A program made the translations under genes and the position numbers. A stretch of DNA of 64,000 bases from positions 1 through 64,000 of the forward strand of contig JAWSUI010000016.1 of assembly GCA_033551855.1 (NCBI GenBank), written 5' to 3'. Shown here piece after piece: positions 43,739-49,054 of the stretch; the stretch's first letter is position 1, and every line of letters begins with the position of its first letter. The notes beneath the pieces were generated by a model. The model did no database searches. It had not been told where the DNA came from and worked only from the letters and a program-made list of their open reading frames with translations. This stretch comes from Deferrisomatales bacterium (lineage in GTDB: Bacteria > Desulfobacterota > Deferrisomatia > Deferrisomatales > JACRMM01).

Positions 43739-45874
43739 TCACTCGCCGGCCGCCTTCGCCCCGGGCAGCGCAGCGAAAAAACCCTTGTTGCGCATCCGGT
43801 CGTGGAGCTCGCCGAGCTTCCCCTTGTTCCAGGAGTTGATCTTGGTGAAATACCCCGTGATGCGCGTGATCCCCTCGACCTCGTCGCTCCCGCACCGGGG
43901 GCATTCGGCCTCGAGGCCCCGGGACGTGCGGCCGCAGGCCAGGCAGGTCGTGAACTCGGGGCTGAAGGCGATCTGGTCGTTGTGGGTGTGACGGAAGACT
44001 TTCTCCACGAAGTTGGCCAGGCTCTCGGGAGAAGGCTTCTCCTCGCCGAGCCAGAGGTGGGTGATGGCGCCGGCCTCGATGAGGGGGTGGAACAGCCCCT
44101 CGGCCCGGACCCGCTCCACGGCGTTCTGGGGGCTCCCCACGTGGAGTTGGGTGGAGTTGGTGTAGTAGATCTCCCCCCGGGAGAGGTCCCCCCGCACCGC
44201 GTGCCCTGCCTGGGGGGAGTGGTACTTGAGGTCGAGCTTCGCAAAGCGGTAGGCGGTGGACTCGGCCGGGGTCTGCTCCAGCACGAAGTGCATGCCGTGG
44301 CGCTGGCTCAGCTTCTCGGTCACGAGCTTCATGTGGGCGATGATCTTGAGGCCGAGCTTGAAGGGTGCTTCGCCGTCATGGAGCTCGTGACCGAGGTGGA
44401 CCTTCACGAGCTCGTTCAGCCCCACCATGCCGATGAGGTAGCTGACACGGTGCATGCGCAGGTAGGGCTGCCCGTCGCGGTTCATGCAGAGCAGCCCCAG
44501 GGGTCCCCGGTCCCCCTGGCTCAGAAGCCTCTCGATGAAGGCCTTCTTCTGCAGGTGGGCCCTGCAGGCGAGCTCGATCATCTCCGTGAGGTAGCGGAAG
44601 AGGAGCCCGTCGTCGCCGCCGGCGCGGTACCCGATCCGCGGCAGGTTCAAGGTGACATTCTGCAAGGCCGAGTAGCGCATCTTCCAGGGCTGCTTGGCGT
44701 CCTCGAGGTCCGACTTCTCCAGCTTGAAGGAGAGGCGGCAGCACTCCGAGATCTTGGCGGTCTCGCCCCGGTCGAAGACGAAGTACGTGTTTCCCTTCTC
44801 CGCCGAGACCTCGCAGATCTGGCGCAGGAACTCCCGGTGCCCCTCGGTCCGGAAGAACTTCTCGGTGATGTGCACGAGGGGTTTCGGAAAGAAGAACGGT
44901 CGGCCCGAGGCATCTCCCTCCCGGTAGACCTCGAAGAGGAACGTGACAAAGCGCTGGGCTTCCTTCTCGTACTCCTTGTAGGTCTTCCCGGTCAGCTCGC
45001 CCCCGGGGCCGATGGCCGGCACGTCCTCGAAGTGCTTGGGGACCTCCCAGTAGAGGTTGATGTCGCTGAAGATGGCCTGCCCGCCCCGGGCGACGGCCTG
45101 CTGGGAGTACTCGTAGATCAACATCTGGGCGAGCTGCTTCACCTCCCGGTCGGCCATCCCCACCAGGTAGGGGGCAAAGAAGAGGTTGACCGCATCCCAC
45201 CCGATGGCCCCGGCGAAGTTCGACTGCAGGGCGGCCGAGAACTTGACCATGTGCGCCAGAAGCACCTCGGCGTGCTTTGCGGGCCGGGCGTTGGCCAGAC
45301 TGTTGGGGAGGTTGAGGCCGAACTTCTTCAGATACTCGAGGCTCTGCCCGGAGCAGTACGGTCGGTCGATGAAGCCAAGGTCATGGAGGTGAAGGTCCCC
45401 GCGCATGTGGGCGTCGGCCACGTCCTGTTCGAAGACCGCGAGCAGGGCGTACTCCTTCTTGATGTTCTCCGCCAGGGTGAGGTTGGTGGCCTCGGGCCCG
45501 TGGGGAACGTTTGCGTTCTCCCGGTTGGGCTGCAAGAGGAGCTGCTCCACGTCGAAGAGGGGCATGCCCAGGCGGGTGTGCATCCGACGGGCGCTCTCCA
45601 GCCCGTGCTCGATGAGCTTGGCGTCTACCAACTCACGGATGAGGGGCGCGGTGAGCACCTCGATCTTCGAGCGCTGGATGACCCCTTCCACCGCCAGGGC
45701 CACCTCTTGAGCCGTGCCCTCGTCCAGCAGCGTCTCCCGCATGAGGGCATCGACGATCCTCTGCCGGTCCCAGCCGACGATGTCCATGTCCGACGTGCGG
45801 ACGAAGAGCACCTTGTCCGTCGCGTCGTTGGGCTGCTCCGGGGGTCGCCGTCCGAGCTCCATGACCTCGCCCAT
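43739..45874 (-). CDS. nrdD: Anaerobic (class III) ribonucleoside-triphosphate reductase with ATP cone
   Basis: HLHDLG, RPYCSG, RGGQ.IFS, ECCRL, EQTPAES, YYTNS, CxxC..CPxC and RITGYF (glycyl radical) motifs. Confidence 0.95.
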   Translation of the reverse strand: MGEVMELGRRPPEQPNDATDKVLFVRTSDMDIVGWDRQRIVDALMRETLLDEGTAQEVALAVEGVIQRSKIEVLTAPLIRELVDAKLIEHGLESARRMHTRLGMPLFDVEQLLLQPNRENANVPHGPEATNLTLAENIKKEYALLAVFEQDVADAHMRGDLHLHDLGFIDRPYCSGQSLEYLKKFGLNLPNSLANARPAKHAEVLLAHMVKFSAALQSNFAGAIGWDAVNLFFAPYLVGMADREVKQLAQMLIYEYSQQAVARGGQAIFSDINLYWEVPKHFEDVPAIGPGGELTGKTYKEYEKEAQRFVTFLFEVYREGDASGRPFFFPKPLVHITEKFFRTEGHREFLRQICEVSAEKGNTYFVFDRGETAKISECCRLSFKLEKSDLEDAKQPWKMRYSALQNVTLNLPRIGYRAGGDDGLLFRYLTEMIELACRAHLQKKAFIERLLSQGDRGPLGLLCMNRDGQPYLRMHRVSYLIGMVGLNELVKVHLGHELHDGEAPFKLGLKIIAHMKLVTEKLSQRHGMHFVLEQTPAESTAYRFAKLDLKYHSPQAGHAVRGDLSRGEIYYTNSTQLHVGSPQNAVERVRAEGLFHPLIEAGAITHLWLGEEKPSPESLANFVEKVFRHTHNDQIAFSPEFTTCLACGRTSRGLEAECPRCGSDEVEGITRITGYFTKINSWNKGKLGELHDRMRNKGFFAALPGAKAAGE

Positions 45875-46247: not shown

Positions 46248-46276
46248 TTGCGCCGCCGGGCCCCCTTCATTATGCT
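46248..46276 (+). promoter_or_regulatory. Putative sigma70 promoter of the ECF-sigma operon
   Basis: TTGCGC-17 nt-TATGCT. Confidence 0.5.
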
Positions 46277-46350
46277 GCAGCCGCCCCTCCCCGGCGCTCT
46301 CACCGACAGCTGTGACCTCGGACCCGGGGCCAGCATCTATAGGGTCGTAC

Positions 46351-46950
46351 ATGAACGAAGCGGAACTGGTGGAGCAGGCCCGACAGGGCGACTTCGGGGC
46401 GTTTGAGGCTCTGGTGACCGCTTCCGAGGGAAAGGTGTACGGCCACCTGTTGCGACTGCTCGGGAACGTGGAGGATGCACGGGATTTGCTGCAGGAGACC
46501 TACCTCAGCGCCTTTCGCCATCTGCGATCCTTCAAGGGCGACTCGGCCTTTTCGACCTGGGTCTACCGCATCGCGACCAACCACGCCCTGATGCGCCTGC
46601 GAAAGAGGAACCCGGAGACTGTCGGCCTGGACGAGATCGCCGTTCCCAGCCACGAGGAGCTCAAGGGGCGCACCATCTCGGATTGGGCGCTGAACCCCCG
46701 AGACGCCGTGCTCCGGAAGGAAGTGCGGGAACTGCTCGACCGCGCGATCCAGTCCCTGCCCGCCACCTATCGAACCGTGGTGGTTCTTCGAGACGTACAG
46801 GGGATGGACACCGCGGAGACGGCGGAGATCTTGGGCATCTCCGAGGGGGCGGTGAAGACCCGGCTGCACCGGGCGCGGATCTTTCTCCGGGAGACCTTGA
46901 ACCCCTATTTCGAGGATGAGATGGGGGGGGGCGGGACGGGGGAGCGATGA
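46351..46950 (+). CDS. ECF (RpoE-like) sigma factor
   Basis: From ATG 46351; DARDLLQETY, FSTWVYRIATN, LRDVQG and GAVKTRLHRAR motifs. Confidence 0.93.
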   Translation: MNEAELVEQARQGDFGAFEALVTASEGKVYGHLLRLLGNVEDARDLLQETYLSAFRHLRSFKGDSAFSTWVYRIATNHALMRLRKRNPETVGLDEIAVPSHEELKGRTISDWALNPRDAVLRKEVRELLDRAIQSLPATYRTVVVLRDVQGMDTAETAEILGISEGAVKTRLHRARIFLRETLNPYFEDEMGGGGTGER

Positions 46951-47204
46951 GCGAGATGCTGAGCTGCCGCGAGATCTTGGACCACCTCTCCGCGTACATC
47001 GACGAGGAGCTCGACGTCAGCCTCTGCGAGGAGATCCGACGCCACATGGAGGGCTGCAGCCCCTGCATCGCCTTCTTGAACACCTTGAAGAAGACCGTGG
47101 TGCTCTACCGCTCCTCCGGAGAGCAGGATACGATGCCGGAGGAGGTTCACATCGATCTGCACCGGTTCCTACGCTGGCGCTGCGTGCACGACGCGGGAGA
47201 ATGA
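46947..47204 (+). CDS. Soluble zinc-binding (zf-HC2/ZAS) anti-sigma factor
   Basis: C..ILDHLSAYIDEEL...HMEGCSPC (HxxxCxxC); overlaps the sigma stop; no TM segment. Confidence 0.88.
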   Translation: MSEMLSCREILDHLSAYIDEELDVSLCEEIRRHMEGCSPCIAFLNTLKKTVVLYRSSGEQDTMPEEVHIDLHRFLRWRCVHDAGE

Positions 47205-47285
47205 ATGGAAGCGATCATCTGGATCTTGGTGGTGGTGGGCGTAGTGGCCCTGCTCGTCCGCGGAGGGGGGTGAGGGAGCTGCTGA
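47205..47285 (+). CDS. Candidate 26-aa single-TM selenopeptide with a C-terminal UxxC motif (MEAIIWILVVVGVVALLVRGGG-U-GSC)
   Basis: ATG directly after the anti-sigma stop with a GGAG RBS; hydrophobic helix; TGA at 47271-47273; SECIS-like hairpin 12 nt downstream. Confidence 0.62.
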
Positions 47286-47301
47286 GCCGCCGGTCGGCGG
47301 T
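47286..47301 (+). promoter_or_regulatory. Candidate SECIS element (micropeptide)
   Basis: gccgcc-GGTC-ggcggt hairpin. Confidence 0.62.
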
Positions 47302-47355: not shown

Positions 47356-47685
47356 ATGGCGACCGAGAAGGTTCTCATCGTGACGGACACCGATTTCGAG
47401 CAGCAAGTCCTCAAGTCCACCCAGCCCGTCCTCGTGGACTTCTGGGCGGCGTGGTGCGGGCCGTGCCGCATGATGAGCCCCGTGGTGGAAGAGCTCGCCG
47501 CAGAGTACGAGGGCAAGGTGGTGATCGCCAAGATGAACGTGGACGAAAATCCCCAGACCCCTGCCAAGTACGGGGTGCGGGGCATCCCGAATCTCAAGCT
47601 CTTCCAGGGCGGTCAGGTTGTCGACGAGATCGTGGGAGCGGTGCCCCGCCAAAAGCTGGAGGAGGTCATCCGGAAGGTTCTCTGA
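47356..47685 (+). CDS. trxA: Thioredoxin
   Basis: VLVDFWAAWCGPC and YGVRGIP motifs; ATG 47356 after GAGGAG. Confidence 0.95.
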   Translation: MATEKVLIVTDTDFEQQVLKSTQPVLVDFWAAWCGPCRMMSPVVEELAAEYEGKVVIAKMNVDENPQTPAKYGVRGIPNLKLFQGGQVVDEIVGAVPRQKLEEVIRKVL

Positions 47686-47885
47686 TGCCCCTCTTCGAGT
47701 ACCTCTGTCCGAGGTGTGGGGAGCGACGGGAGGTCCTGACCCGTTCGGGGGGGGCCGTGCGTCCCCCTTCCTGCCCGGCATGCAGGGCGGTCATGGAGAA
47801 ACAGTTCTCGCCGGTGGCCGCGCACACGCGCGCCAGGAACCAGGGGTGTTCCGCCCCCGGCGGCGGTTTCTCCTGAGCCCCGTGA
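47685..47885 (+). CDS. FmdB-family zinc-ribbon protein; probable Sec at 47874-47876 (...GCSAPGGGFS-U-AP)
   Basis: MPLFEYLCPRCG...CPAC; TGATG coupling to trxA; SECIS-like hairpin 11 nt after the TGA. Without recoding the CDS ends at 47876. Confidence 0.75.
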
Positions 47886-47887
47886 GG

Positions 47888-47903
47888 GAGGCCGGTCGGC
47901 CTC
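47888..47903 (+). promoter_or_regulatory. Candidate SECIS element (FmdB-type protein)
   Basis: gaggcc-GGTC-ggcctc perfect hairpin. Confidence 0.65.
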
Positions 47904-47955: not shown

Positions 47956-48492
47956 ATGACGCATGCCTGCCGGCGAGGAGCCCTCGTCTTCCTGCTGTTC
48001 CTCCTCTTGCACGGCTGTTCCGGGGAGTCCTCGCCGCAGCGAGCCGACCCGCGGGAGGCGCCCGACTTCGTCTTGACCACCCTGGAAGGGGACCAGGTCA
48101 CCCTCTCCGCCTATCGAGGCAACGTGGTGCTCCTGGATTTCTGGGCCACCTGGTGCCCCCCGTGCCGCACCAGCATCGCCCACAACGTGGAGCTCCAGGA
48201 GAAGTATGGACCTCGAGGGTTCACGGTCCTGGGACTGAGCTTGGACAAGAACCCTGAGGATGTGGAACAGTTTCTTCGCCGCCAGGATGTGAATTTCCCC
48301 ATGATGTTCCTGGACGAGCCGACCCGTCAGGCGTACGGCGGGGTGCCCACGATCCCCTATTCGGTGCTCATCGACCGCACGGGGCGGATCCGTCAGAAGA
48401 AGTTGGGCTTTACACGGGAGGTGGCCGAGAGCGTGGAGAGGACCATCGAGCGTCTGCTGACGGAAGGCACACCCCTCCCCTACGGCTCGTGA
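47956..48492 (+). CDS. TlpA/ResA-family thiol-disulfide oxidoreductase, lipoprotein
   Basis: LHGC lipobox; APDF, LLDFWATWCPPC and PTIP motifs. Confidence 0.92.
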   Translation: MTHACRRGALVFLLFLLLHGCSGESSPQRADPREAPDFVLTTLEGDQVTLSAYRGNVVLLDFWATWCPPCRTSIAHNVELQEKYGPRGFTVLGLSLDKNPEDVEQFLRRQDVNFPMMFLDEPTRQAYGGVPTIPYSVLIDRTGRIRQKKLGFTREVAESVERTIERLLTEGTPLPYGS

Positions 48493-48535: not shown

Positions 48536-49054
48536 ATGAACCGACTCCACCGGGGGGCCCTGGTCCTCTTGTTCGCCGCGGCCGTGGCCGGGGGCCCCGG
48601 ATGTTCCGGCGACCCCGTGCCGGAGTCCCCGAGGATCGCCCCCGACTTCACGCTGACTGCCCTCGACGGGGAACCGGTCCGCCTCTCCGACCACCGTGGC
48701 CGGGTGGTCTTGCTGGACTTCTGGGCCACGTGGTGCGCCCCCTGCCGGGTTTCGATTCCACACCTGGTGGAACTGCAGGAGAAGTATCGCGGCGACGGCC
48801 TCGTCGTGATCGGGATGAACATGGATCACGACCAACAGGAGCTCGAGGCCTTCCTCCGCCGGCAAACCATCAACTACCCTGTCGTGGCCGTGACCGAGGA
48901 GCTGCGAGCGGCCTACGGGGGGGTCGTCTCCATACCCTTGGCCTTTGCCGTGGACCGGAAGGGCCACATTCGGCAGCGTTTCTTGGGGTACGACCGCCGG
49001 GTGGCCAAGGACATGGAGCAGACGATCCAGACGCTGCTCCGAGAGGCCCCGTGA
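48536..49054 (+). CDS. TlpA/ResA-family thiol-disulfide oxidoreductase (tandem paralog)
   Basis: APDF, LLDFWATWCAPC and SIP motifs; clearly similar to the preceding gene. Confidence 0.92.
   Translation: MNRLHRGALVLLFAAAVAGGPGCSGDPVPESPRIAPDFTLTALDGEPVRLSDHRGRVVLLDFWATWCAPCRVSIPHLVELQEKYRGDGLVVIGMNMDHDQQELEAFLRRQTINYPVVAVTEELRAAYGGVVSIPLAFAVDRKGHIRQRFLGYDRRVAKDMEQTIQTLLREAP

Follow-up and report, generated by a model that had tools for sequence, protein, structure and literature searches.

We report that the genome of a Deferrisomatales bacterium very likely holds an unannotated gene of 26 codons, the product of which is membrane-anchored and carries selenocysteine (Sec) in a short cytoplasmic tail, and that this gene belongs to a real, apparently undescribed family of very small membrane selenoproteins. 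The window analysed here comprises 64,000 nucleotides (positions 1 to 64,000, forward strand, of contig JAWSUI010000016.1, assembly GCA_033551855.1). Comparison of 85 family members, i.e. 83 genomes and two metagenome contigs from three lineages of the phylum (deltaproteobacteria; lineages A, B and C below), makes it very probable that the in-frame UGA of the gene is decoded as Sec.

The gene spans positions 47205 to 47285 of the forward strand and reads MEAIIWILVVVGVVALLVRGGG-TGA-GSC-TGA, with 22 residues ahead of the first TGA (47271-47273), which would specify Sec as residue 23, and with the terminal TGA at 47283-47285. The predicted peptide has an acidic N-terminus and a hydrophobic helix at approximately residues 3 to 18, followed by R-GGG-U-G-S-C and the stop. 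The ATG at 47205 abuts the stop codon (TGA, 47202-47204) of the upstream anti-sigma gene, and GGAG (47196-47199, forward strand), which lies within the end of that gene and 5 nt before the ATG, forms a weak ribosome-binding site; a Shine-Dalgarno-like match of at least 4 nt precedes the start in 82 of the 85 members. The codon score of the frame is +7.9, while the other two frames score -12.3 and -10.4. Both the ribosome-binding site with the ATG abutting the upstream stop and the TGA-GSC-TGA arrangement are present as described in an earlier sequence-only reading of this DNA, and the hairpin GCCGCC-GGTC-GGCGGT, which it had placed 12 nt after the first TGA, was located at 47286-47301 (forward strand), i.e. 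in the 3' untranslated region.

In the Escherichia coli fdhF SECIS the upper stem begins 11 nt after the UGA and the apical region carries GGUC. The GGUC loop of the window hairpin lies 18 nt past the UGA, and loop and distance are identical to those of the fdhA SECIS of the same genome. The bacterial SECIS model, in which the loop lies 16-37 nt after the UGA and has a leading G (PMC13188914, section 5), fits the window hairpin on both counts. The 20-nt hairpin has a predicted folding energy of -11.3 kcal/mol (estimates ranging from -10.3 to -11.3 kcal/mol) with a z score of -2.3 relative to shuffled sequences, and its 60-nt and 101-nt contexts fold no better than shuffles (z +1.17 and +0.11, respectively). 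It is without a U-tract and absent from the terminator listing, and the Rfam search gave nothing near the gathering score. The strict pattern TGA-N14-18-GCCGGTC(N)GGC matches only 10 of the 72,299 TGA triplets in the genome, and these include fdhA, two rhodanese-like genes, the peptide ORF and the adjacent FmdB gene. From the window genome alone the hairpin is modest evidence for Sec: generic SECIS-like hairpins follow 38 of 1448 coding-like TGA stops vs 18 of 527 TAG stops in this genome, i.e. they are not enriched after TGA. This lack of enrichment, together with TGA being the commonest stop (1448 of 2062 coding-like stops) and with no Cys homolog having been found (see below), speaks for the UGA being the ordinary stop of a 22-aa membrane peptide followed by a stabilising or processing structure, a reading that we consider very improbable given that the hairpin copies the host fdhA SECIS in loop and distance, and given the comparative data that follow.

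A DNA search that used the flanking genes as queries, and so took no account of the UGA, recovered the locus in all but one of the 20 other genomes of the class (lineage A). These 19 loci all have the ORF, the UGA and the hairpin; with the window's own genome (G000) included, 20 of 21 class genomes have the three in the interval from the anti-sigma gene to trxA. Lineages B and C were found by profile searches reading through stops. Lineage B (family f53) comprises 21 members from 77 genomes and 15 more in genus g109, which were obtained by DNA search, and lineage C (family f13) comprises 27 members from 81 genomes. The two metagenome contigs were found with a TGA-containing pattern and are biased with respect to UGA counts; that metagenome pattern scan had at least three members among the 119 matches listed. 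A separate pattern scan of genome contigs was too loose, with at least four members (L047, L106, L141 and L148) among the 119 matches listed. Among 401 genomes sampled from the phylum, members were detected in families f1, f3, f4, f13 and f53 only, by a search of incomplete sensitivity that missed the known members G019 and G012. No members were detected among 251 genomes from the phylum of a Nitrospiria genome (five matches) or among 401 genomes from the phylum of an Anaerolineae genome (10 matches), all matches being non-members. One further member, G331 (U-GKC-stop), stands outside the 85, and a profile hit without locus (G264:C42) was left out of the counts. Before counting, L346, L347 and L353 (of 30 order-level loci), L382 and L385-L389 (of 27 class-level loci) and L322, L332 and L333 were dropped; the dropped rows are SHOCT-like, His-rich Cys, GGGGYYW or unrelated sequences. 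A TM-RGSGCG-stop match in G058 was set aside, being antisense to a long ORF.

All 85 members have UGA as the internal codon; they come from kin genomes and do not represent 85 independent trials. Against an ordinary stop stands the observation that the first stop is never TAA or TAG while the second changes freely: in each of 70 members the first stop-like codon encountered is TGA, and the terminal stop is TGA in 38, TAA in 21 and TAG in 11. No column of alignment A6 other than that of Sec is invariant. Moreover, the codons between the two stops are conserved as amino acids. Variation after the UGA at first, second and third codon positions is 0.26/0.16/0.47 in group A, 0.17/0.03/0.37 in B, 0.10/0.03/0.19 in B2 and 0.04/0.29/0.59 in C; third positions vary most in all four groups, the changes are mostly synonymous, and Ser after the UGA is encoded by both AGY and TCN codons, so that this stretch behaves as coding. 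Judged on the alignments, conservation across the class excludes chance for the ORF, the UGA and the hairpin.

A hairpin follows the UGA in all 70 members tested, mostly with a G-led loop 18-29 nt downstream, and its stem sequence differs lineage by lineage. The covariation analysis suggested in the sequence-only reading gave compensatory changes in two lineages, with scores that kinship inflates and structures that derive from the same sequences: in lineage C 98% of the cells are paired, three of six pairs have two-sided changes and none of 500 shuffles matches the score, and in lineage A 88% of the cells are paired and two of six pairs have two-sided changes. RNAalifold returned no consensus structure for the lineage A alignment, where the 5-nt loops of three members put these out of register. 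In lineages B and C the UGA of the genomes' own fdhA and selD genes is followed by a similar GG-loop hairpin, usually at 18-20 nt. In one genome (G017, L036:1345-1450) the terminal stop is lost and the frame U-GPCKKPPVRRDKFK-stop crosses the hairpin, which places the SECIS inside the coding region.

The machinery for Sec insertion, which the sequence-only reading had named as a check, is complete in the window genome: selA, selB, selC and selD all score above cut-off, and selD itself has an in-frame UGA. For the other members, selB was detected in 19 of 20 lineage A genomes and selA in 19 of 21 lineage B and 25 of 27 lineage C genomes. Since Sec genes are near-universal in the groups searched (66 of 77 and 74 of 81 genomes of the lineage B and C groups, respectively), their co-occurrence with the peptide is consistent with Sec insertion and barely discriminating. 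The sole class genome without the peptide (G011) gave no selA match, yet it has selB and is therefore not a clean control, and in five selA-less genomes of genus g172 the neighbouring DUF302 query is absent too, such that no Cys comparison is possible there.

Sec positions are usually proved by a homolog with Cys in the same column. The expectation that such homologs of the same peptide might exist was not borne out: none of the profile hits inspected (including 60 listed hits read by eye; the member-counting script accepted any stop and not Cys) was a Cys version of the short peptide, and only longer His-rich look-alikes of unproven kinship were seen. A full HMMER search of 1.84 billion representatives returned two proteins, neither a member, and an exact look-up of 10 sequences found one member in the protein collection, in an unnamed form ending at the UGA. 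With the UGA in 85 of 85 members, the varying terminal stop, the covarying hairpin and the Sec machinery taken together, the earlier proposal of a minimal membrane-anchored selenoprotein with its SECIS past its own stop codon is, on comparative grounds, well supported.

Members are 23-32 aa long and all have a hydrophobic stretch, and the helix is poorly conserved (mean column identity 48%). The positive-inside rule places the positively charged flank of a helix on the cytoplasmic side. The first five residues have a net charge of -1 in 70 of 85 members and the tail carries +1 or +2 in 78 of 85; we infer from this asymmetry a type III topology (N-out/C-in) with the tail in the cytoplasm. Sec is preceded by linkers of the form R/K-GGG, GGxGGG or RGGC. 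The tail is UxxC in most of lineages A and B, UxC in L031 and L045, UxxxC in genus g109 and CU-G-x, with Cys directly before Sec, in lineage C, and three members (L340, L354 and L375) are without Cys. Consequently, of the C-terminal UxxC motif noticed at the outset, the part that concerns the window peptide (UGSC) stands and its use as a motif of the family does not. Sec is the fourth residue from the C-terminus in the window peptide, the third in 27 of 27 lineage C members and in L031 and L045, and the fifth in g109. Because the Cys spacing varies and three members are Cys-free, Sec appears to be the essential residue; a thioredoxin-type UxxC site would not tolerate a moving Cys, and a flexible ring-closing tail would. 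At L395 (G323), L415 (G317), L408 (G311), L410 (G308) and L416 (G314) of g109 the peptide gene has decayed, has been broken up by repeat-like insertions or is absent, and G323 has an intact copy elsewhere in the genome. The peptide looks dispensable in this genus, its gene appearing to be decayed or lost in several genomes.

In the window the peptide gene is preceded on the forward strand by genes for an ECF sigma factor of 199 aa (46351-46950; TIGR02937 above cut-off) and an RsrA-like zinc-binding anti-sigma of 85 aa with C-x25-HxxxCxxC (46947-47204; TIGR03988, E 8e-11, below cut-off). It is followed by trxA for a thioredoxin of 109 aa with WCGPC (47356-47685; TIGR01068 above cut-off), a gene for an FmdB-family zinc ribbon (47685-47885; TIGR02605 above cut-off) and two TlpA/ResA-like thiol-disulfide oxidoreductase genes (47956-48492 and 48536-49054, forward strand; best models NF002854 and NF047696, below cut-offs). 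The latter two are probably part of the same operon as the peptide gene and would be co-transcribed with it. The order ECF sigma, zinc anti-sigma, peptide, trxA and FmdB is that of lineage A, to which the window adds the two TlpA-like genes. The sigma gene adjoins in 22 of 22 lineage A loci, and trxA comes after the peptide in the same 22. The gene for NrdD, the anaerobic ribonucleotide reductase, lies at 43739-45874 on the reverse strand, divergent from the sigma operon.

Two promoter candidates precede the sigma gene on the forward strand. One is sigma-70-like (TTGCGC-N17-TATGCT, 46248-46276); by eye, the 20 class genomes show similar TTG...TAT(G/T/C)CT spacing ahead of the sigma gene, and a strict consensus scan did not list the candidate. 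The other, GTGACC...GCATCT (46310-46340), is of ECF type and probably autoregulatory: the motif is present in 21 of 21 upstream regions examined, and the site is the top of eight genome matches to a matrix trained on these same sites. The second-best match (C38:16545, reverse strand, in G000) lies 3.8 kb upstream of selA and is followed by approximately 90 nt without a long ORF and then a terminator-like hairpin, possibly a small RNA. Other matches in G000 stand ahead of an OsmC-like gene (C8:74794, reverse), a gene for a CxxC-rich small protein (C6:34078, forward) and a methyltransferase-like gene (C22:28569, forward), all labelled by eye; these genes are possible regulon members.

The upstream genes recall the SigR-RsrA-thioredoxin system of Streptomyces, which likewise has an ECF sigma factor, a zinc anti-sigma with a CSPC core, an adjoining thioredoxin and a conserved ECF-type promoter. 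The window anti-sigma differs from RsrA around this core (HMEGCSPCIA vs HFEECSPCLE; PMC3177212) and, as far as the determinants given there extend, shares one of four flanking redox determinants, in addition to scoring below the TIGR03988 cut-off. The window operon also differs in that it adds two Sec-tailed small proteins.

This arrangement bears on the suggestion in the sequence-only reading that the peptide may be a redox or metal sensor for the adjacent sigma/anti-sigma pair. A sensor dedicated to this pair would oxidise or bind the zinc anti-sigma. The peptide gene directly follows the anti-sigma gene, with stop and start abutting or nearly so, in 22 of 22 lineage A loci, and the anti-sigma is soluble and the peptide tail would face the cytoplasm. 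The family as a whole argues otherwise: the anti-sigma gene and trxA are found in 22 of 22 lineage A loci and in none of the 63 lineage B and C loci, from which the ECF promoter motif is absent too, so that the peptide is not tied to the anti-sigma and the pair adjoins it in only 22 of 85 loci. Furthermore, RsrA-type anti-sigmas sense disulfide stress themselves, according to the account of RsrA in PMC3177212. We consider a dedicated sensor quite improbable. In lineage B the peptide gene comes after FmdB and a gene for a small membrane protein and often before DUF302; eight lineage B loci have a distant sigma-like match 1.1-2.1 kb downstream, and the lineage B and C genomes have only distant relatives of the anti-sigma (26-33% identity in four of five tested). 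Lineage C neighbours are unrelated genes (carbonic anhydrase, response regulator, Usp, RsbRD_N and methyltransferases) and uninformative on thiol stress. In several lineage C loci the peptide gene stands alone between divergently or convergently oriented neighbours, an arrangement that suggests that its product works in trans.

The same gene contexts weigh against the peptide being incidental to a cis-acting selenium gauge, in which the speed of Sec insertion at the UGA would set translation or stability of the downstream message. Such a device would suit a tiny ORF with a poorly conserved helix, placed within an operon and followed by trxA and a second Sec gene. All lineages, however, retain the helix and the asymmetric charge, the genes downstream are not the same ones, and in lineage C some of the peptide genes lack a close co-oriented gene behind them. 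In the window, the trxA ribosome-binding site lies outside the hairpin and is left uncovered by it. A gauge of this kind therefore seems to us quite improbable.

The second Sec gene just mentioned is the FmdB gene of the window, which is probably another hidden Sec gene in the same operon. Its frame, 600 nt downstream of the peptide ORF, ends ...GGGFS-UGA-A-P-stop (UGA at 47874-47876; terminal stop TGA) and is followed by a SECIS-like hairpin, GAGGCC-GGTC-GGCCTC (47888-47903, forward strand), with the loop 17 nt after the UGA. A recognisable FmdB gene is present in 35 of 43 lineage A and B loci, and in all 35 the gene end consists of TGA and one or two further codons before a variable stop, with a hairpin behind it, the loop of which is mostly GGTC; g109 loci with a damaged peptide gene retain this Sec tail. 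FmdB selenoproteins are already on record: those of the GOS survey have Sec in a CxxU motif (PMC2398784), and UxxU is the motif entered for the family in Table 1 of PMC13188914. The window protein belongs to the same zinc-ribbon family, but its CxxC pairs keep Cys and Sec is on a C-terminal extension, so that the position of Sec appears to differ from that in the published FmdB selenoproteins.

The reading that we prefer, and to which we assign a probability slightly above even for the chain as a whole, is that the peptide is a redox effector at the membrane surface that is reset by thioredoxin. SelB bound to the 3' hairpin would direct Sec insertion at the UGA, giving a type III peptide of 23-32 aa with its acidic N-terminus outside and a single helix, in which the basic residue and the glycine linker would hold the selenol just inside the cytoplasmic membrane. 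The tail would function as an exposed redox group in an unfolded state, not within a folded enzyme. Its selenolate may react with an oxidant or with a disulfide or persulfide at the membrane surface, whereupon the nearby Cys, free in its spacing, would close a protective Se-S ring for the thioredoxin system to re-reduce. In lineage A the effector would be co-expressed with TrxA, the Sec-tailed FmdB zinc ribbon and the TlpA proteins under a probably autoregulated thiol-stress switch of ECF sigma and zinc anti-sigma, and in the other lineages it would work without an adjacent switch of this type. The redox role is suggested by the neighbours in lineage A (TrxA, zinc anti-sigma and TlpA) and by the second Sec-tailed protein in lineages A and B.

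The closest Cys look-alikes motivate another use of the same selenopeptide, namely as a soft-metal ligand, for Cu(I), Hg(II) or As(III), that captures the metal at the inner membrane face or hands it over to a transporter. These proteins, of unproven kinship, are 50-110 aa long with the layout TM-RxGG-C/CC-G and a His-rich tail (alignment A7); several are encoded beside heavy-metal P-type ATPases or are fused to YHS, their CC aligns with the CU of lineage C and their single C with the U of lineage A, and profile comparison with the peptide gave a probability of 97.5 and a score of 49.7. The match is circular, the look-alikes having been chosen with the peptide's own profile, and an unrelated TM-GGGGYYW family also scores (probability 93.6, score 27.5). 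The Sec members lack the His-rich tail, and no metal ATPase stands beside those whose neighbours were examined. We regard metal binding as possible and clearly less probable than the redox role. Examples of look-alikes beside heavy-metal P-type ATPases, with lengths of 50-80 aa, are L388:1489-1692, L389:1426-1575, L427:1489-1641, L435:843-1079 and L325:1477-1683, and those scanned matched no Pfam or NCBIfam family. The GGGGYYW family, used as a control only, is represented by a 29-aa TM peptide ending GGGGG-YYW-x-RRR, e.g. in G000 (C49:3933-3995, reverse strand) and at L428, L429, L431, L434, L453 and L458; some genomes have several copies, and the sample from the Anaerolineae phylum has it as well.

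As regards known selenoproteins with Sec near the C-terminus, the UXX-star and KCU-star families are soluble, longer proteins. UXX-star was reportedly defined by Haft and Tolstoy in 2025, with the terminus U-x-x-stop. Among the entries of Table 1 in PMC13188914 are UXX-star (NF041114, NF041211 and NF041212), KCU-star/DUF466 (NF033934) and a UGSC family (seleno)protein (NF041046). In UXX-star and KCU-star, as in the peptide, Sec is a few codons from the stop and the SECIS must consequently be in the 3' untranslated region; with this precedent, a SECIS beyond the stop is not new. The pattern U-x-x-stop is shared by 27 of 27 lineage C members and by the window FmdB (U-A-P-stop), and the window peptide differs in ending U-x-x-C-stop. 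The UXX-star models gave no match with 25 members of A2 at E<=1 and two more at E<=0.1, in searches where very short queries can be lost to the HMMER filters, and NF033934 matched none of the members scanned. NF041046 has the four letters U-G-S-C in common with the window tail, but its model gave no match, and UGSC, which here ends a 26-aa membrane peptide, is not constant in the peptide family.

The closer resemblance in plan is to eukaryotic SELENOK and SELENOS. In the description given in PMC10650576, this family is defined by layout and not by sequence, i.e. by an N-terminal TM helix and a Gly/Pro/basic region, with type III topology, a cytoplasmic unstructured tail and Sec second or third from the C-terminus; SELENOK is described as ending in the Sec-containing segment UGR (bioRxiv 2021.05.15.444318). 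On the features given there, the bacterial peptides share the single N-terminal TM helix of type III with a cytoplasmic tail (topology judged from charge only) and a Gly/basic linker before Sec, which at 3-8 residues is far shorter than the eukaryotic one, and 10 of 27 lineage C members end U-G-R-stop as SELENOK does. In contrast, Sec is fourth from the end in the window peptide, the host and the SECIS are bacterial, and the peptides have 23-32 aa vs 94 aa for SELENOK. We see a likeness of plan, for which convergence is likelier than homology. Tentatively, and with a probability somewhat below even, we propose that bacteria have a minimal counterpart of SELENOK/SELENOS, a Sec-only type III peptide of 23-32 aa and possibly the shortest genetically encoded selenoprotein, within a wider hidden deltaproteobacterial class with Sec on short disordered C-terminal tails, of which FmdB would be the second case. 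If so, the tail alone would be the working unit, and the peptide, short enough for direct synthesis and testing, would offer a stripped-down model for terminal Sec in disordered membrane-anchored tails and extend to bacteria the single-helix Sec-tailed layout described for the eukaryotic proteins.

NCBIfam (June 2026) and Pfam have no fitting model for the members scanned, which gave only weak generic TM matches, and a protein search with L025 gave no match. The examined part of the 119-family catalogue table of 2026 (PMC13188914) has no entry describing such a peptide, and the literature searched has no paper on the family, though an entry for it may exist in the supplementary tables of Haft and Tolstoy 2025 or deep-Sep. 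Standard searches likely miss it since the peptides are very short, Sec is 3-5 residues from the end, the SECIS is outside the coding region and there is no evident Cys homolog; the new deep-Sep families, as presented in PMC12013277, all have Cys homologs, which suggests why this one would be missed. The peptide and the FmdB tail suggest that counts of C-terminal Sec extensions in deltaproteobacterial genomes are too low, and that some of the stop codons annotated there are Sec.

In G000 an in-frame UGA with a SECIS-like hairpin was also noted at C122:1237, C21:50429, C80:7985 and C50:3340 (forward strand) and at C46:25038, C38:11085 and C5:63046 (reverse strand); these seven are two rhodanese-like genes, one UshA-like gene, two AhpD/CMD-like genes (by eye), fdhA and selD. 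Finally, a different small TM protein, ending ...ILPKLGMDT-UGA-MSKSC, is encoded in G143 (L177:1501-1650, forward) upstream of an FmdB gene that is likewise Sec-tailed, and a similar one, ending ...IFPKLGVRT-UGA-MSRDVC, in G209 (L185:1420-1557, reverse). This type of protein had no NCBIfam match above cut-off and is a candidate second selenoprotein family.
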